Below are positions 3,222 to 29,247 of a DNA stretch of 64,000 bases, piece after piece (position 1 is the stretch's first letter; each line of letters starts with the position of its first letter). Origin of the DNA: Roseitalea sp. (lineage in GTDB: Bacteria; Pseudomonadota; Alphaproteobacteria; Rhizobiales; Rhizobiaceae); NCBI GenBank assembly GCA_041752455.1, contig JBGSWL010000140.1, positions 45,423 to 109,422 on the forward strand, read 5' to 3'. Under the pieces are notes generated by a model. The model saw only the letters and a list, made by a program, of their open reading frames with translations. It was not told where the DNA came from and did no database searches. The translations under genes and the position numbers were made by a program.

Positions 3222-4304
3222 ATGACGCTGAATGTCGCGATCATCGGCGCCGGAATCGGTAGCCAGCATCTGGACGGCTACCTGCAACTGCCGGCGCACT
3301 ACCGCGTCGCGGTGATCTGCGATCTGGCCGAGGACAAGGCGGCGGCGCTGGCAGCGCGGGCGCCGGATGCCGTTGCGATGACCGATCTTTCCGCCGTGCT
3401 GGCCGATCCTTCGATCGACATCATCGACATCTGCCTGCCGCCGCATCTGCACGGCCCGGTCGCCCTGCAGGCCTTTGCAGCGGGCAAACATGTCATCTGC
3501 GAGAAACCGCTGGCGGGCAGCGTCATCGAAGCAGATGCGATGGCGGGGGCGGCGCTGGCCGCAGGGCGCCTTCTGGCGCCGATCTTCCAGTACCGCTACG
3601 GCCGTGGCCTTCGGCAACTTGCGGCAATGGTCGATGGGGGCATTGCCGGAAAGCCGATGGTTGCGACCATCGAGACGCACTGGAACCGCGATGCGGCCTA
3701 TTATGCGGTGCCGTGGCGCGGCAAATGGGCAAGCGAACGGGGCGGCGCCGTGCTTGGCCACGCGATCCATGCCCATGATCTGGTGACGCGGTTTTTGGGA
3801 CCGGCAACGCAGGTGATGGCGATGGCTGACACCCGCGTCAACGCCATCGAGGTCGAGGATTGTGCGGCGGTGTCCATGCGGATGGCGTCGGGTGCGCTGG
3901 TGACATCGTCGATCACGCTTGGCGCTGCGAACGACACGTCGCGCTTCCGCTTTGTTTTCGAGAACCTGACGGCTGAAAGCGGGCGCAAGCCCTATGCGCC
4001 GGGCGAGGACGCCTGGACCTTCACGGCGCGCGCTCCGTTGGCGCAGGCGACGCTCGATGCGGCGCTAGCTGAAGCCGAAACCGCCATTGCCGGTGCGCCA
4101 TCCGGTTATGCCGGCCAGTTCCTGGCGGTGGCCGAGCATCTGGCAGAGCGGCCTGCCGATCTCGTGACGGCGCAGGACGGCGTCCGTTCGCTGGAGTTTG
4201 TCGCGGCGATCTATTTGTCATCGCGCGAAGCACGCGCGGTCGATCTGCCGATGGCGCGCGACCATGCGATTTGCCGGGACTGGGTTCCGGCCCGACAGGA
4301 GTAG
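3222..4304 (+). CDS. Gfo/Idh/MocA family oxidoreductase
   Basis: NVAIIGAGIG Rossmann fold and a CEKPL motif. The ORF-track start at 3195 is TTG; the first ATG is at 3222. Confidence 0.8.
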   Translation: MTLNVAIIGAGIGSQHLDGYLQLPAHYRVAVICDLAEDKAAALAARAPDAVAMTDLSAVLADPSIDIIDICLPPHLHGPVALQAFAAGKHVICEKPLAGSVIEADAMAGAALAAGRLLAPIFQYRYGRGLRQLAAMVDGGIAGKPMVATIETHWNRDAAYYAVPWRGKWASERGGAVLGHAIHAHDLVTRFLGPATQVMAMADTRVNAIEVEDCAAVSMRMASGALVTSSITLGAANDTSRFRFVFENLTAESGRKPYAPGEDAWTFTARAPLAQATLDAALAEAETAIAGAPSGYAGQFLAVAEHLAERPADLVTAQDGVRSLEFVAAIYLSSREARAVDLPMARDHAICRDWVPARQE

Positions 4305-23649: not shown

Positions 23650-24852
23650 ATGACGACAGCAACCGATTTTTCGCGCACGCGCGGGCAGTTCCATCTGCCT
23701 GACGGCGTTACCTATCTTGATGGCAACTCGCTCGGGCCGATGCCGCACGGTGCGATGGCCGCTGCAACCCGTGCCATCGAGGGCGAATGGGCGCAGATGC
23801 TGATCGGCGGCTGGAACAAGGCCGGATGGATGGCGATGCCGGAGCGGCTCGGCAACCGGATCGGCCGGCTGATCGGCGCGCCGGAGGGAACCGTCGTCGT
23901 CGGCGACACCCTGTCGCTGAAGGTCTACCAGGTGCTCGCGAGCGCGCTGGCGCTGCGACCGGATCGCCGGGTGGTGCTGTCTGACACCGGCAATTTCCCG
24001 ACCGATCTCTACATGGCTGACGGCCTCATCAAGATGCTTGGCGATGGTTACGAACTCGAGCTTGTGGCCCCGGAAGACGTGGCCGATGCCATCGGCGAAC
24101 GTCATGGCGCGGTGATGCTGACGCATGTCGATTATCGCACCGGGCGGATGCACGACATGGCGGCGATCACCCGCAAGGCCCATGCGGCAGGCGCCGTCAT
24201 GGTCTGGGATCTCGCCCACTCGGCCGGTGCCGTGCCGGTCGATCTTGCTGCCTGCGGAGCCGAGTTTGCGGCCGGCTGCACTTACAAGTATCTGAACGGC
24301 GGCCCTGGTTCCCCGGCCTTTGCCTATTGCCGCGCCGACCTTTGCGATGATGCGTCGATCGCGTTGCAGGGCTGGCTTGGCCATGCGGCACCGTTTGCCT
24401 TCGACCCTCACTACAGGCCGGCGCAGGGCATTGCCCGGCTGCGGATCGGTACACCGCCGGTGATCCAGATGGCGGTGCTCGATGCGGCGCTTGATGTCTG
24501 GGACAGTGTCTCGATGAAAGACATCCGCGCCCGGTCGTTATTCCTGACCGACCGGTTCATCGCAGCGGTCGAGGCCAAGTGCCCGGACCTTCAGCTCGTC
24601 ACGCCGCGTGACCATGCCAGCCGCGGGTCGCAGGTCTCGCTTTCACACGAAGACGGCTATGCGATCATGCAGGCGCTGATTGCCGAAGGCATCATCGGCG
24701 ATTTCCGTGCGCCGGACATTTTGCGCTTCGGGTTCTGCCCGCTCTACAACACCGACGCCGATGTGGACCGGGCAGTTGATGTCCTTGCGCAGGTGCTGGC
24801 TGAAAAACGCCATGAACAACCGCGGTTCCGTGTTCGCCATGCGGTGACCTGA
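23650..24852 (+). CDS. kynU: Kynureninase
   Basis: Typical N-terminus (FHLPDGVTYLDGNSLGP) and the PLP-Lys region (CTYKYLNGGPG), about 400 aa. Confidence 0.85.
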   Translation: MTTATDFSRTRGQFHLPDGVTYLDGNSLGPMPHGAMAAATRAIEGEWAQMLIGGWNKAGWMAMPERLGNRIGRLIGAPEGTVVVGDTLSLKVYQVLASALALRPDRRVVLSDTGNFPTDLYMADGLIKMLGDGYELELVAPEDVADAIGERHGAVMLTHVDYRTGRMHDMAAITRKAHAAGAVMVWDLAHSAGAVPVDLAACGAEFAAGCTYKYLNGGPGSPAFAYCRADLCDDASIALQGWLGHAAPFAFDPHYRPAQGIARLRIGTPPVIQMAVLDAALDVWDSVSMKDIRARSLFLTDRFIAAVEAKCPDLQLVTPRDHASRGSQVSLSHEDGYAIMQALIAEGIIGDFRAPDILRFGFCPLYNTDADVDRAVDVLAQVLAEKRHEQPRFRVRHAVT

Positions 24853-24864
24853 GGATCGGAATAA

Positions 24865-24897
24865 GCCTGCCGCGGCGAGGGGGTAGCCGCGGCAGGC
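24865..24897. terminator. Perfect 12-bp GC hairpin between convergent kynU and the S8 protease gene
   Basis: GCCTGCCGCGGC, a 9-nt loop, then GCCGCGGCAGGC. The weak T tract makes efficiency uncertain. Confidence 0.5.
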
Positions 24898-24980
24898 CGT
24901 CCGGTTTGGCCCGGCAATCCATGCGACGGGGGTCAGATGTGACGGGCGCCCGGCATGTGCTCAACGCGTGGCGCCGCGCC

Positions 24981-26420
24981 TTATTCCCCGGAAACGGCAA
25001 AGACAGCGCTGGCGTCGCAAATGGCTGCGACCTTGATCAGCCCGTGGCCGAAAATGTCGTCGCGGCCGGCCTCGCCAAGGTCCTCGCTCAAGTCGGCCAG
25101 CCGCTTGGCAATCGCTTCCGGCGTGCTGTCCGGCTCGAGCGAGCGAAGAAGCCCCGCTGCTGCGGCAACGAATGGCGCAGCAAAGGAGGTGCCGGTCTTC
25201 GTACGGGCCCCGCGGATTGAAGCTGCTGCCCAGACATCGACCCCCGGCGCGGCAAAATCGATATGGCCGCCGCGTACGGCTCTGCGATAGGGATTGAGGG
25301 CGCGATCGACGCCGGTTACCGCGATCACGTCATCGTAGGCAGCCGGATAGAGCGGTTCTGACGCAGGCCCGGCGTTCCCGGCGGCGGCGACAACCACGGT
25401 CCTTGTCGAGATGATCTGCCCGATCAGGGATTCGAGGACTGCATTGTCCGGGCCTGCCAGCGACAGGTTGATGACATCGACCCCGGCTTTTGCCACCGCA
25501 TCTATGGCCAGGACGAGACTGTAGACATCGGTGCGTTCGTCACCGTTGACCGTTTCGAACGGATCGGCGGCGGTCACACTGGCCCAGGGCAAGAGGCCCG
25601 GCGTGCGGGAGGATGGCGATCCGACAAGAAGCGCCGCAACTGCGGTTCCGTGCTGGCGATCGGACGGCGCGGCAAGCCCGGACCTGTCATTTTGCACGAA
25701 CTGAAGGTCTGCATCGACCAATGCCTCATGCGCCGCATTGATGCCGGTATCGACCAGCCCGATGCGGATCGGGCGCTTGCACGCAGCCGGCAGGGCATTC
25801 GGCTCCGGCCAACCGATCAGTGAACGGTCCGCGCAGTGGTTCCCGGTGCAGGCGGTGCCCTCCGGGGCCGCGCCCGGACGGTAATAGTGGTTGAAATCGG
25901 CGGCAGCAGCCGGATTGGCGGCGCGCACGGCAGCGCGTGCGTCTTCGAGGTTGGTTCCTTGCGGAACACCAAGCCGGATGACCGATACGGAGCCGGCAGA
26001 CAGGGCGCTTCGGCTGAGAACCGTGTAGCCGTTGCCTTGAAGTGCGGAAAGTTGATCGTCTGCAAGGCCGATCGCAATGACCTGCGCCGGGGCCTGTACC
26101 GGCCGGATCACGGGCGCTGGCTGTCGCGCGGCTGTCGGCGCGGGGCGTCTTGCACCCTGCTGTTCCGCTTTCGGTTTTGGAGCGGACTGAAGCTGGCGGG
26201 GGGAAGGGCCCGACGAGATGCTTCCGCTTCCAACACTCGTCGCGGCGCCGTCATCATCGTCATCAACATCATCATCGTCATCGCCGTCATCATCATCGCC
26301 GCCGTCGTCATAATCATCCGCATGGGCAATCGCACCGTCAAAGCCGGGTAGTGAAACCGGTACCGTCACGACGGCGGCAACGAGCGTGGCGGCGAGGATA
26401 GTCTGGATGATGTTTTTCAT
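24981..26420 (-). CDS. Secreted S8 (subtilisin-like) serine peptidase with an N-terminal poly-Asp tract and propeptide-like region
   Basis: Signal peptide ending AHA. Triad contexts are LVDTGI (Asp), HGTAVA (His) and GTSFAAP (Ser). AGGAGAG SD precedes ATG 26420. Confidence 0.85.
   Translation of the reverse strand: MKNIIQTILAATLVAAVVTVPVSLPGFDGAIAHADDYDDGGDDDDGDDDDDVDDDDDGAATSVGSGSISSGPSPRQLQSAPKPKAEQQGARRPAPTAARQPAPVIRPVQAPAQVIAIGLADDQLSALQGNGYTVLSRSALSAGSVSVIRLGVPQGTNLEDARAAVRAANPAAAADFNHYYRPGAAPEGTACTGNHCADRSLIGWPEPNALPAACKRPIRIGLVDTGINAAHEALVDADLQFVQNDRSGLAAPSDRQHGTAVAALLVGSPSSRTPGLLPWASVTAADPFETVNGDERTDVYSLVLAIDAVAKAGVDVINLSLAGPDNAVLESLIGQIISTRTVVVAAAGNAGPASEPLYPAAYDDVIAVTGVDRALNPYRRAVRGGHIDFAAPGVDVWAAASIRGARTKTGTSFAAPFVAAAAGLLRSLEPDSTPEAIAKRLADLSEDLGEAGRDDIFGHGLIKVAAICDASAVFAVSGE
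26247..26318 (-). repeat. Low-complexity GAT/GAC tract encoding DDYDDGGDDDDGDDDDDVDDDDDG
   Basis: Read directly from the S8 protease translation, immediately after the predicted signal-peptide cleavage site. Confidence 0.9.
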
Positions 26421-26510
26421 GGGGCCGGCTCTCCTGCCTTGGAAAATGGGTTGGCTCCGCCAGATGTCCACTACGGGACATGCTGACATCGAAAAATCTG
26501 ATGGCGGCAC

Positions 26511-26541
26511 GGAATAAACGCTTGGGCGGGCGCGTTATTCC
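26511..26541. promoter_or_regulatory. Palindromic element containing ECF-type promoter motifs in both directions
   Basis: Sequence is GGAATAAACG-N12-CGTTATTCC. On the + strand it reads GGAATA-N16-CGTT, 43 nt before the sigma gene ATG. On the - strand it reads GGAATA-N15-CGTT, facing the S8 protease gene. Confidence 0.5.
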
Positions 26542-26578
26542 ATCATGACGGATCAAATGGCGCTGAGGGGGCGTCCTG

Positions 26579-27073
26579 ATGACTGACGACAGTTTTGCCG
26601 ATGCCGTTGTCGCGCAATTGGCGGCAATGCGTCGTTACGGATTGATGCTGTGCCGCTCGCCGGACCTCGCTGACGATCTTGTCCAGATCGCCTGCGAGAA
26701 AGCGTTTGCCAACCGCGGATCGTTCGACCCCGCGACCAATATGCGGGCCTGGCTGTTCCGGATATTGCGGAACAGTTTCATCGACTCAACGCGTCGCGGA
26801 CGGCCGCTCAAGGATGCGGTCGATATCGATGAGCAACCCGACCTGTTGTCGGTCGATGGCGTGCGCCTGCAGGAAAACCGCATGTTGGTGGCGGAGGTTT
26901 GCGATGCACTTGCCAGTCTGCCGCCGGCACAGCAGGAAATCCTGATTCTGACCTGCGTCGATGAATTGACCTATCGCGAGGCAGCGGACCTGCTCGAAAT
27001 TCCGATCGGAACGGTGATGAGCCGGTTGGCACGGGCGCGGATCGCCCTTGGCGAGCAGCTTGGAATAAACTGA
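26579..27073 (+). CDS. ECF-type RNA polymerase sigma-70 family factor
   Basis: Sigma-2 region (DLVQIACEKAF...WLFRILRNSFID) and sigma-4 region (LTYREAADLLEIPIGTVMSRLARAR), about 164 aa. Confidence 0.9.
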   Translation: MTDDSFADAVVAQLAAMRRYGLMLCRSPDLADDLVQIACEKAFANRGSFDPATNMRAWLFRILRNSFIDSTRRGRPLKDAVDIDEQPDLLSVDGVRLQENRMLVAEVCDALASLPPAQQEILILTCVDELTYREAADLLEIPIGTVMSRLARARIALGEQLGIN

Positions 27074-27112
27074 CCATGGCAGCGTTTCCATGACGACAAT
27101 GGAGCTTGGATC

Positions 27113-27901
27113 ATGACACAGACCCACACACCCGGCGGGTTCGATGACGAAACGCTGATGGCGTATGCCGACGGGCTGCTTTCGTCCGTGCGCGCGACCG
27201 AAATCGAGACTGCCGCCGCTAGTGATGCCAGTCTGCGCAAACGGATCGACGTGTTTGTCGAAACCCGCCGCAGGCTTGCCGCAGCGTTTGGCGCCGCCGA
27301 TCCGACACCTATGCCCGACGGGTTTGAAGCGCGCATCCGGGCGCTGGCGGCACCCGCTTCGGCACGCAGGGAGACTGAGGCCGTTGTCGATCTTGCTGCG
27401 GCGAGGGCCGGCCGTGCGCAGGAGTCGGTACGCAAGGGCGCTCCCTGGTTTGTCGTGCCGTTGGCGGCGTCACTGGCGCTGGTTGCCGGCGGTTTGCTCG
27501 GCCGCCTGACGGCTGTGCCCGTTCAAGGCAATCCCGTGTCGCCATTGGCGACCCTTGCCAGCGCCGATGTGTCGGTCGCGCTGTCTTCGGTTCCGGCTGG
27601 CGAGCGCATCAAACTGACGGGCGGCGACCAGTTTCAGGTGGTCTCGACCTTCCGCGATGGTGCAGGTTCGCTTTGTCGGGAATTCGAGATCGATACGGCT
27701 ACCGGGGCTGCAACGGTCGCCGTCGCCTGTCGGGCAGATGCCGTCTGGGCTGTCCAGTTTGCCGCAGCGTCTGCTACCGGCACCGACGGTTATGCGCCGG
27801 CGTCCTCGATGGAGGCGCTGGACGCATGGCTTGCGGCGACCGGGGCCGGTGCACCTCTGGACGCTGCGGCGGAAAAGACCGCCTTGCAGCAACGGCCCTG
27901 A
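27113..27901 (+). CDS. Membrane-spanning anti-sigma factor (no zinc-binding HxxxCxxC motif)
   Basis: N-terminal anti-sigma helix pattern (DDETLMAYADGLL), a single TM helix (WFVVPLAASLALVAGGLLG) and a periplasmic C-domain. It lies directly downstream of the ECF sigma gene. Confidence 0.75.
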   Translation: MTQTHTPGGFDDETLMAYADGLLSSVRATEIETAAASDASLRKRIDVFVETRRRLAAAFGAADPTPMPDGFEARIRALAAPASARRETEAVVDLAAARAGRAQESVRKGAPWFVVPLAASLALVAGGLLGRLTAVPVQGNPVSPLATLASADVSVALSSVPAGERIKLTGGDQFQVVSTFRDGAGSLCREFEIDTATGAATVAVACRADAVWAVQFAAASATGTDGYAPASSMEALDAWLAATGAGAPLDAAAEKTALQQRP

Positions 27902-27925
27902 CATGTTCGCGAAAGGACATCGGAG

Positions 27926-28645
27926 ATGAATTTTCTGGCACGCCGCCCGCAGCCCGCGCCGGTCATCCGGTTCCTGTGCCGGCCGGAGGACGAAGGCGTC
28001 ATTGCGCCACCTGTTCCCGCCAAGGCCTATCTGCCGGACTGGTTCCGCAAACTGCCAGCGGTCGATCCGGACGCCGCCGGGCTCGACAATACGGGGCTGA
28101 CCGTCAAGCGCTGCATGCCATTTCTCGATGCGATGACGACCGGATGGATCATTCCACTGGCAGCGACCGTTCGCATGCAGGTGTCGGAGAACGGCACCCG
28201 CGTGGACAGTGCCTGGGATTTTGACCGCACGCTGGTCTCCGGCCATGGTGTGCATCAGGTCAAGGGGCACCCGATGAGCGACCGTCCGCCCTGCAAGTTC
28301 CACAACTATTGGACGATCGTGACGCCGCCCGGCTGGAGTTGCCTGTTCGTCAATCCGCTGAACCGCCCCAACGGCCTGTTCGAGGTGGTGGCAGGCGTTG
28401 TTGATACGGACACCTATGCCTCCGAGATCCACTTCCCGTTTTTCGCAACCGCCGAAGACGGGCTTCACGTCATCGAAAAGGGATCACCGATCGTTCAGGT
28501 CATTCCGTTCCGGCGTGATACGGCGATGCTTGATGCCGAGATCCGCGCCGAAACCACCGACGAAAAACGTCATCGCGAGACCATTCTGCGCAACACCAAG
28601 GCAAGCGAGGGCTGGTACCGCGAGCATGCGCGCGCCAAGCGCTGA
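27926..28645 (+). CDS. Conserved-looking hypothetical protein, cytoplasmic, function unknown
   Basis: 239 aa with no signal peptide or TM helix. It starts 24 nt after the anti-sigma stop, so it is probably co-transcribed. I cannot name a domain with confidence. Confidence 0.6.
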   Translation: MNFLARRPQPAPVIRFLCRPEDEGVIAPPVPAKAYLPDWFRKLPAVDPDAAGLDNTGLTVKRCMPFLDAMTTGWIIPLAATVRMQVSENGTRVDSAWDFDRTLVSGHGVHQVKGHPMSDRPPCKFHNYWTIVTPPGWSCLFVNPLNRPNGLFEVVAGVVDTDTYASEIHFPFFATAEDGLHVIEKGSPIVQVIPFRRDTAMLDAEIRAETTDEKRHRETILRNTKASEGWYREHARAKR

Positions 28646-28674
28646 GAAGGGGCTTTCGCTGTCAAACACGTCCA

Positions 28675-28707
28675 CGAAAAAGGGCCGGTTTCCCGGCCCT
28701 TCTTTTT
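28675..28707. terminator. Bidirectional rho-independent terminator
   Basis: GAAAAA-AGGGCCGG-tttc-CCGGCCCT-TCTTTTT. There is a T-run after the stem on both strands, between convergent genes. Confidence 0.8.
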
Positions 28708-28721
28708 GCGGTCTGCCCGTC

Positions 28722-29174
28722 TCAGTTGCTCGAATTGCTGCTCGAGTTGGACGACGAGTTGCTGCTCGAGTTGGACGATGAGTTCGATGAAGAATTGCTG
28801 CTCGAGTTGGACGATGAGTTGCTGTTCGAATTCGACGACGAGTTGGAGTTTGAATTCGACGACGAGTTGCTGTTCGAATTGCTGTTGGAATTGGACGAGG
28901 AGTTCGAGTTGGCGTTGCTGTTGGAATTGGACGACGAGTTGGAGCTGGAGTTCGACGACGAATTGCTGTTGGAATTCGAGCTTCCGCCGACACCCTTGGT
29001 GCGCTTCAGCTTTTTGGTGCGGAACTGGACCTGCGCGACGTCCTGATATTCCGAAGCGACCGGGCCGGTCTGGGTCGGGGCATGTGGTGCCTTCAGGCTG
29101 GCCGAGGCTGGCACGATGGCGGTTGCCGCTGCCAACAGGCCGGCGGTCAGGGTGGTGAGATGCTTTTTCAACAT
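28722..29174 (-). CDS. Secreted Ser/Asn-repeat protein (150 aa; the C-terminal 86 aa are S/N only, with one A)
   Basis: AGGAAA SD; signal peptide MLKKHLTTLTAGLLAAATAIVPASA; basic patch RTKKLKRTKG; then (SSN/SN)n up to the stop codon. Confidence 0.7.
   Translation of the reverse strand: MLKKHLTTLTAGLLAAATAIVPASASLKAPHAPTQTGPVASEYQDVAQVQFRTKKLKRTKGVGGSSNSNSNSSSNSSSNSSSNSNSNANSNSSSNSNSNSNSNSSSNSNSNSSSNSNSNSSSNSSSNSSSNSSSNSSSNSSSNSSSNSSN
28725..28982 (-). repeat. Degenerate 6/9-bp tandem repeat (higher-order period about 60 bp) encoding the Ser/Asn tract
   Basis: Units such as ttgctgctcgagttggacga recur. Serine is written with several different codons (AGC, TCG, TCC) and Asn with AAC/AAT. Confidence 0.9.
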
Positions 29175-29221
29175 GGCGATTTCCTTTGCTGCGACCCGCA
29201 ACAAGCGCGGGACAAAAGATC

Positions 29222-29247
29222 AACGCAGCGGGCTCCTCGACTATTCC
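29222..29247 (-). promoter_or_regulatory. ECF-type promoter candidate for the Ser/Asn-repeat gene
   Basis: The minus strand reads GGAATA-N16-CGTT, about 48 nt upstream of the ATG. The hexamer, spacing and -10 are the same as upstream of the ECF sigma gene. Confidence 0.5.

Follow-up and report, generated by a model that had tools for sequence, protein, structure and literature searches.

The window, by which we mean the whole 64-kb stretch of DNA analysed here, carries an ECF sigma factor gene on the forward strand and an S8 peptidase gene on the reverse strand, separated by a 158-bp spacer from which the two genes diverge. A 31-base near-palindrome (26511-26541) lies within this spacer. The genes of the cluster that bear on its interpretation are the following.

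24981..26420, reverse strand: secreted S8 (subtilase) peptidase, 479 aa (Pfam Peptidase_S8, E = 1e-30), with an acidic low-complexity N-terminal region
26579..27073, forward strand: ECF sigma factor, 164 aa, RpoE6-like, probably of group ECF26 (Pfam Sigma70_r2 and Sigma70_r4_2; TIGR02937, ECF superfamily)
27113..27901, forward strand: anti-sigma factor, 262 aa (anti-sigma region at the N-terminus, a single hydrophobic span, periplasmic part)
27926..28645, forward strand: DUF6065 protein (Pfam DUF6065), 24 nt after the anti-sigma gene

The sigma factor has no regions besides 2 and 4. Over 158 aa it shares 48% identity with Sinorhizobium meliloti RpoE6, and its membership of ECF26 rests on this homology together with the gene context; its nearest database relatives are 55-57% identical. 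The peptidase shares 48% identity with S. meliloti SMa0142; its start (26420) is preceded by a GGAGAG ribosome-binding site, and its N-terminus is signal-peptide-like. The anti-sigma protein is 39% identical to the S. meliloti EcfR6 region (its NCBIfam anti-sigma match is weak), and its hydrophobic span can be read from the sequence near residues 110-132. The DUF6065 gene is probably co-transcribed with the anti-sigma gene, since the gap between them is only 24 nt; its product shares 66.5% identity with the S. meliloti region that the SMa0148 promoter immediately precedes. Judged by these similarities, the locus is an RpoE6-like ECF26 module of S8 peptidase, sigma factor, anti-sigma factor and DUF6065 protein. 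A profile search of the five cluster proteins (24981-29204) found no regulator gene besides those for sigma and anti-sigma; the other ORFs between 21.7 and 31.8 kb were read by eye only.

The source organism is known only from hot-spring and biofilm metagenomes, and only DNA runs contain the window. The exact sigma protein occurs on two metagenomic contigs only; metagenome contigs are identical to the window across the spacer and thus show no natural variation there. A search of the plasmid collection found no near-identical DNA.

Two ECF26-type promoter motifs on one near-palindrome

The palindrome reads GGAATAAACG-CTTGGGCGGGCG-CGTTATTCC, where the inner CTTGGGCGGGCG corresponds to N12. Its arms of 10 and 9 nt are complementary save for a one-base bulge (AAA versus AA), which bears out the near-perfect inverted repeat noted in an earlier, sequence-only reading of this DNA. 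Because the bulge leaves only 7 nt of ungapped complementarity, the palindrome was absent from an ungapped repeat search. The central 12 nt are asymmetric and the symmetry is limited to the promoter hexamers. The palindrome and the other sites in the window that match the ECF26 promoter motif are listed below.

26511..26541, both strands: 31-bp pseudo-palindrome holding two complete predicted ECF26-type core promoters on opposite strands
26511..26536, forward strand: predicted rightward promoter of the sigma/anti-sigma/DUF6065 operon (-35 GGAATA at 26511-16, N16, -10 CGTT at 26533-36)
26517..26541, reverse strand: predicted leftward promoter of the S8 peptidase gene (-35 GGAATA at 26541-36, N15, -10 CGTT at 26520-17)
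27062..27086, forward strand: internal ECF26-type promoter, candidate for the anti-sigma gene, overlapping the sigma stop codon (GGA ATA AAC TGA) 26 nt before the anti-sigma ATG
29222..29247, reverse strand: predicted ECF26-type promoter (GGAATA-N16-CGTT) preceding the gene of a Ser/Asn-rich secreted protein, 28722-29174, reverse strand
24963..24987, reverse strand: ECF26-type promoter-like site that overlaps the stop codon of the peptidase gene and precedes a structured stretch of ∼ 95 nt (24957-24855)

The same earlier reading had described a rightward GGAATA-N16-CGTT and a leftward GGAATA-N15-CGTT close to the two start codons, each -35 adjoining the other promoter's -10, and the sequence agrees on all of these points. 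The rightward CGTT lies 42 nt from the sigma ATG (26579) and the leftward CGTT 96 nt from the peptidase ATG (26420); each -35 abuts, or overlaps by one base, the -10 of the opposite promoter. The two -10 motifs (26517-20 and 26533-36) do not overlap but are 12 bp apart, and each -35 is found on the far side of the other's -10.

The motif GGAATA-N15-17-CGTT occurs five times in the window against an expectation of 0.06, and none of 100 shuffled sequences reached five. All five sites fall within 24963-29247, 4.3 kb around the sigma gene, and share the form GGAATA-N14/15-GCGTT; two of them are the two strands of the palindrome, which is also the only facing GGAAT...ATTCC pair with a span of 29-31 in the window. 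As a bare inverted repeat the palindrome is unexceptional (the window has 49 bulged inverted repeats of comparable kind versus ∼ 25 in shuffles, and the DNA hairpin energy of a single-strand fold, z = -1.45, is not significant), but its motif content exceeds chance. A motif scan of the 158-bp spacer found no other ECF-type or sigma70-type promoter. The energy and position of the palindrome led us to reject hairpin, cruciform and terminator readings; its place between divergent genes means that it is not a terminator.

We consider it likely that the palindrome serves the adjacent sigma factor (ECF26, RpoE6-like) as a promoter in both directions, with one promoter per strand on the same 31 bp. 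An overlapping pair of ECF promoters had been proposed in the sequence-only reading, and the proposal gains support from the cluster of five sites, from the homology of the locus to the RpoE6 module of S. meliloti, in which the promoters of protease and anti-sigma have this motif and mapped starts, and from the presence of the same layout in 40 of 69 spacers between a different pair of divergent genes (see below).

S. meliloti RpoE6 and the sigma/S8 spacers of relatives

S. meliloti RpoE6 was assigned to ECF26 with ECFfinder (Lang et al., 2018; PMC6180224). The consensus of this group is -35 GGAATA / -10 GT, and the divergent arrangement of sigma gene and serine protease gene (SMa0142) is widely conserved within it (PMC6180224). 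SMa0142 is induced by RpoE6 from a promoter (GGGAATAGACCGACGACTCAGCCGTT...) whose start was mapped by RNA-seq and 5'-RACE; ecfR6, which encodes the anti-sigma factor, is likewise RpoE6-induced and is possibly transcribed, as the authors suggest, from a motif inside the rpoE6 ORF (PMC6180224). Mapped starts are available for both the protease promoter and the internal anti-sigma promoter (PMC6180224). SMa0148 is a further RpoE6 target, with the highest RpoE6 log fold change among the Table 1 genes examined, and its promoter carries the same motif; GGAATA-N15-CGT is common to the SMa0142, ecfR6 and SMa0148 promoters (PMC6180224). The mapped promoter of rpoE6 itself is RpoD/RpoH-like (PMC6180224). 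The ECF26 family and its motif, the protease as a target and an internal promoter for the anti-sigma gene are already known.

The mapped start of the protease promoter is 8 nt after CGTT. When we placed the published starts on the sequence, the divergent promoters were seen to overlap in S. meliloti too, with the rpoE6 start at L281 3910(+) and the SMa0142 start at 3901(-), 9 bp apart. The window resembles this pSymA locus in its gene set (S8 and sigma genes in divergent orientation, an anti-sigma gene downstream of sigma, and a DUF6065 target; 39-67% identity), in its -35 GGAATA and -10 CGT(T), and in an internal anti-sigma promoter at the 3' end of the sigma gene. The position of the peptidase-side -35 relative to the sigma ATG is also comparable (∼ -32 to -40 in S. 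meliloti, depending on the ATG chosen, and -38 in the window). The two loci differ on the sigma side. The RpoD/RpoH-like rpoE6 promoter of S. meliloti has its start upstream of the protease -35, whereas the predicted sigma-side promoter of the window is a mirror-image ECF26 promoter on the same 31 bp. Relative to S. meliloti, the window would thus have apparent positive autoregulation added, and both its sets of promoter elements lie between the two predicted starts.

We sampled 80 distant relatives of the sigma factor, ∼ 20 of which have an S8 gene adjoining the sigma gene. GGAATAA-N15/16-CGT is present 39-82 nt before the sigma start in nine of 16 S8-linked relatives, and an S8-side motif on the opposite strand in more than 20 relatives. 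In L004, L013, L016, L021 and L237 both motifs occur in one spacer, back-to-back and serving sigma and S8, as in the window. However, the promoters of these five loci are separate (-35 hexamers 5-57 bp apart, -35 starts 11-63 bp), so that two polymerases could in principle bind together, whereas those of the window share base pairs.

A second subgroup is made up of S. meliloti, Paracoccus denitrificans, many Rhodobacterales and, from metagenomes, the closest relatives (L282-L287). Here the peptidase-side -35 is located at -4 to -47 from the sigma ATG (S. meliloti, P. denitrificans and ∼ 20 other relatives), and an internal motif at the 3' end of the sigma gene is present in 23 of the 25 loci of a set chosen by HTTM homology (described below) and also in the closest relatives. 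These closest relatives (S. meliloti, Rhodobacterales, L282-L287) mostly lack an ECF26 motif for the sigma gene, and autoregulation is therefore not the rule in the subgroup. The window combines a sigma-side motif with the internal anti-sigma motif and is the sole case of full overlap among ∼ 30 sigma/S8 spacers. P. denitrificans PD1222 was considered as a model of the overlap and rejected: it has the module, but with the peptidase-side motif only.

The rarity of sigma autoregulation among the closest relatives makes it the main alternative to our reading that only the leftward, peptidase-side promoter works. The rightward match would then be inactive or negligible, and the sigma operon would be transcribed from some other, unrecognised promoter, as in those relatives. 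Indeed, among the 25 loci of the subgroup that has the internal anti-sigma promoter, only three show an ECF26 motif upstream of the sigma gene. At the same position, L282-L287 and P. denitrificans have the peptidase-side motif alone, and the mapped S. meliloti rpoE6 start uses RpoD/RpoH-like hexamers. Yet the rightward site of the window is a perfect match to the consensus, down to the extended GGAATAAAC and the G preceding CGTT. Six particular bases are required for its -35, and the unidirectional promoters of the family lack them downstream of the -10; simple arithmetic puts the chance of such a match in a 158-bp spacer at ∼ 3e-4. The spacer offers no sigma70-like promoter in its place, and the distance of the rightward -35 from the sigma ATG (-68) is inside the range of relatives (-39 to -82). 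On these grounds we regard a purely leftward promoter as unlikely.

On the sigma-side strand of L282 (2920-2965), L283 and L285, a sigma70-like TTGCAA-N16/17-(T)CTATT appears interdigitated with the ECF promoter of the peptidase. The -10 of this putative promoter uses TATTCC, the reverse of GGAATA, at the place where the window has an ECF -35. The comparison hints that the predicted autoregulatory promoter of the window arose by replacement within a conserved overlapping geometry.

Recurrence of the overlapping layout

We scanned one genome per species with the pattern GGAATA-N0-1-ACG-N10-14-CGTTATTCC, which returned at least 119 stretches, a mixture that includes hairpins of low-GC genomes. 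Among the matches listed with perfect 9-nt arms from high-GC genomes, the inner spacer is 12 nt in 21 of 33 (chi-square p = 9e-9); the corresponding figure among the matches listed from low-GC genomes is two of 32. With 9-nt arms, a 12-nt inner spacer amounts to GGAATA-N15-CGTT on both strands. At least 11 of the high-GC matches separate two divergent genes, one for an HTTM/VKGC-like membrane protein and the other for a DCC1-like thiol-disulfide oxidoreductase, whose start codons are each 26-31 nt away; others precede DUF6065 genes or are near S8 genes. The window itself contains no HTTM or DCC gene.

The pattern scan carried selection bias, and we therefore took a sample of 80 loci picked by HTTM protein homology alone, 69 of which have a divergent DCC gene. 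A facing GGAAT...ATTCC pair with a span of 29-31 bp is present in 40 of these 69 divergent DCC/HTTM spacers (50-130 bp). In the 40 elements the inner ACG ends at position 8, 9 or 10 and CGT starts at 22 or 23, but the two positions co-vary, which keeps the -35/-10 spacing at 15 or 16 on either strand of all 40. The form of the half-site differs among relatives (GGAATACG, GGAATAACG, GGAATAAACG). Part of the conservation of the aligned arms stems from the search patterns themselves. Neither the spacer nor the flanks are conserved, whereas the A at position 6 is invariant although the search did not require it. Of the loci that have an ECF26 sigma gene within 3 kb, 24 of 27 carry the element, versus 16 of 42 of those that do not (Fisher p = 4e-5). 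A typical gene order is S8 (leftward), sigma and anti-sigma (rightward), DCC (leftward), HTTM (rightward).

The DCC/HTTM elements, which come from Rhodobacterales, Azospirillaceae, Rhodomicrobium, Bosea and others, have an architecture identical to that of the window but serve another gene pair. In Paracoccus siganidrum (L247), GGAATAAACG-N12-CGTAATTCC matches the window in span (31) and spacing (16/15). Further examples of two-way elements among L202-L280 are L205 2909-2938 and L218 2888-2917. The linkage of the divergent pair of an HTTM protein with a VKGC lumenal domain and a DCC1-like protein to ECF26 sigma/anti-sigma/S8 clusters was seen in Rhodobacterales and other Alphaproteobacteria. 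From their sequences, these loci suggest that the bacterial gamma-carboxylase homologue belongs to an ECF26 envelope-stress-type regulon. We found no description of HTTM/DCC under ECF control in the searchable literature (subscription journals outside its scope). Cultured carriers of the DCC/HTTM element include Celeribacter persicus, Roseovarius atlanticus and P. siganidrum. As to transcript data, the one RNA run found for R. atlanticus, compared with the relative L218, yielded patchy low-depth contigs only, uninformative as to starts, and no RNA runs were found for Bosea sp. Root381, a carrier of the two-way element.

The layout was also encountered with other neighbours. Window-like GGAATAAACG-N12-CGTTATTCC is present at L106 3889-3919, L114 7171-7201 and L177 5475-5505 (Xanthobacteraceae and other alphaproteobacterial MAGs), where it precedes a secreted SAM-methyltransferase-like protein and has no convincing gene on the opposite side. 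The spacers of these three elements lengthen the stem by 2-3 bp, and a hairpin role is possible there. A two-way motif precedes DUF6065 in two Bradyrhizobium loci; DUF6065 has its own motif in L004 and, judging from the position of the motif, probably in L021.

These data bear on a reading in which the palindrome is the operator of a dimeric transcription factor for both divergent genes and its likeness to ECF hexamers is incidental; a dimeric repressor site had been offered as the alternative in the sequence-only reading. A near-dyad centred between two divergent genes is what such an operator would look like, and strictly conserved arms with variable spacers, as in the related DCC/HTTM elements, are what it would show. 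But the window palindrome has an internal one-base bulge between its arms and an asymmetric centre, in place of rigid half-sites at a fixed distance, and among relatives there are half-sites of three lengths with a constant -35/-10 spacing of 15-16. The same hexamers occur in unidirectional form at three further sites of the window and in mapped RpoE6-dependent promoters, and the presence of the element tracks that of the sigma gene. The cluster encodes no regulator other than sigma and anti-sigma among the five proteins scanned, although a distant regulator could serve. The recurrent 29-31 bp layout, with its fixed spacing and variable half-sites, fits two promoters better than a dimeric operator, and we hold the operator to be quite improbable. 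An inverted repeat that arose by chance, or a DNA/RNA hairpin, in either case without a role as a promoter, would be in keeping with the abundance of comparable bulged repeats in the window and the insignificant hairpin energy, but is hardly credible against the clustered enrichment of the motif and the recurrence of the layout in dozens of species.

Proposed mechanism and possible wider occurrence of two-way ECF promoters

Our preferred reading remains that of two ECF26 promoters sharing 31 bp. In this model the rightward GGAATA-N16-CGTT would drive the sigma, anti-sigma and DUF6065 genes and the leftward GGAATA-N15-CGTT the secreted S8 peptidase gene. Once the membrane anti-sigma factor releases sigma, the holoenzyme could dock on the palindrome in either orientation. 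With the S. meliloti protease start 8 nt after CGTT as a guide, transcription is predicted to start just outside the ends of the palindrome, near 26544(+) and 26509(-) (ranges ∼ 26543-26546 and ∼ 26510-26507, ∼ 35 bp apart), and the transcripts would for that reason diverge without overlap. Of the two arrangements that the sequence-only reading had left open, back-to-back is thus the one that stands, albeit with complete overlap of the promoters, and face-to-face does not agree with the predicted starts.

Each -35 hexamer would be at ∼ -9 to -4 of the other promoter, inside the open-complex bubble, and the polymerase footprints would coincide. One initiation should therefore exclude the other; this expectation draws on general properties of RNA polymerase open complexes. 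The element would in effect split sigma-dependent initiations between positive feedback on the sigma operon and peptidase output, and the internal motif at the 3' end of the sigma gene would add extra anti-sigma factor, that is, negative feedback. We infer sigma dependence, binding in both orientations, the start sites, mutual exclusion and the partition of initiations for the window from its sequence and that of its relatives. Since the two directions share bases, neither can be optimized independently, and one of them may be weak.

Bidirectional promoters for sigma70 were described in Escherichia coli by Warman, Grainger and colleagues (PMC12825309). There, polymerase can bind a single pseudo-symmetrical sequence either way round, binding in one orientation precludes binding in the other, and competition is seen when one direction is strongly activated (PMC12825309). 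The two directions share a -10 with the -35 hexamers outside, and the distance between the starts is typically 18 bp, with 10 and 23 bp also seen (PMC12825309). At the level of sequence the window is similar, in that a pseudo-symmetrical sequence offers promoter elements both ways. Unlike the sigma70 type, however, it has separate -10 motifs 12 bp apart, each abutting the other's -35, and the pair is contained in 31 bp (29-31 in relatives), with predicted starts ∼ 35 bp apart and an ECF sigma factor. The element therefore resembles sigma70 bidirectional promoters in principle but lacks their defining geometry, and by its sequence is an interdigitated ECF pair. In the searchable literature, which excludes subscription journals, we found no description of overlapping or bidirectional ECF promoters of such type.

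We are inclined, with less confidence than for the window itself, to regard interdigitated two-way ECF promoters (GGAATA-A0-2-CG ... CGT-A/T-ATTCC, 29-31 bp) as a distinct and conserved regulatory class in which the orientation of the polymerase picks the gene. In the window such an element would tie sigma autoregulation to the protease; in at least 40 other species it would co-express the DCC1-like and HTTM proteins and place them in the ECF26/S8 regulon. If this is true, ECF sigma factors reach bidirectionality by a different and more compact geometry than the shared -10 of sigma70. This geometry would arise because the reverse complement of the ECF26 -10 (CGTT) is all but present in the extended -35 of the same promoters (GGAATAA(A)CG). 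The elements would then provide a natural test bed for polymerase competition at two promoters that answer to one inducible sigma factor, an orthogonal part of 31 bp for two-way expression in synthetic circuits, and a regulatory lead on the roles of the RpoE6-type module and of bacterial HTTM/DCC pairs. If the reading holds, the window can be seen as a small local regulon of the peptidase, sigma/anti-sigma/DUF6065, the Ser/Asn-rich secreted protein and possibly a small RNA.

The candidate small RNA concerns the motif at the peptidase stop codon, which has no ORF downstream because the convergent gene ends at 24852. The ∼ 100 nt stretch that follows folds strongly (-54.4 kcal/mol, z = -4.0), with a 13-bp hairpin and then UUAUU at its end; its match to the alphaproteobacterial sRNA ar7 of Rfam is sub-threshold (28.6 bits against a gathering score of 60, E = 0.0099). 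We consider 24855-24987(-) a candidate for a sigma-dependent small RNA that would share the terminator of the peptidase gene, by analogy with MicL, which depends on sigmaE in E. coli. A plausible protein gene follows the motif downstream of S8 in most of the relatives checked.

The secreted protein encoded at 28722-29174(-) has 150 aa, mostly Ser/Asn repeats, and its own ECF26 motif. An analogous motif precedes an analogous Ser/Asn-rich secreted protein in L004, and other low-complexity secreted proteins follow the motif in L010 and L021. The S8 peptidase of the window has a poly-Asp/Gly N-terminal stretch. We speculate that the low-complexity secreted proteins may be substrates or partners of the peptidase.

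The -35 of the predicted anti-sigma promoter is coded by the last sigma codons, GGA ATA AAC TGA (Gly-Ile-Asn-stop). An overlap of the C-terminal codons with GGAATAA was also observed in S. meliloti, P. denitrificans, Pseudochrobactrum and 23 of the 25 loci of the HTTM set, and the C-terminus of the protein and the promoter thus constrain each other.
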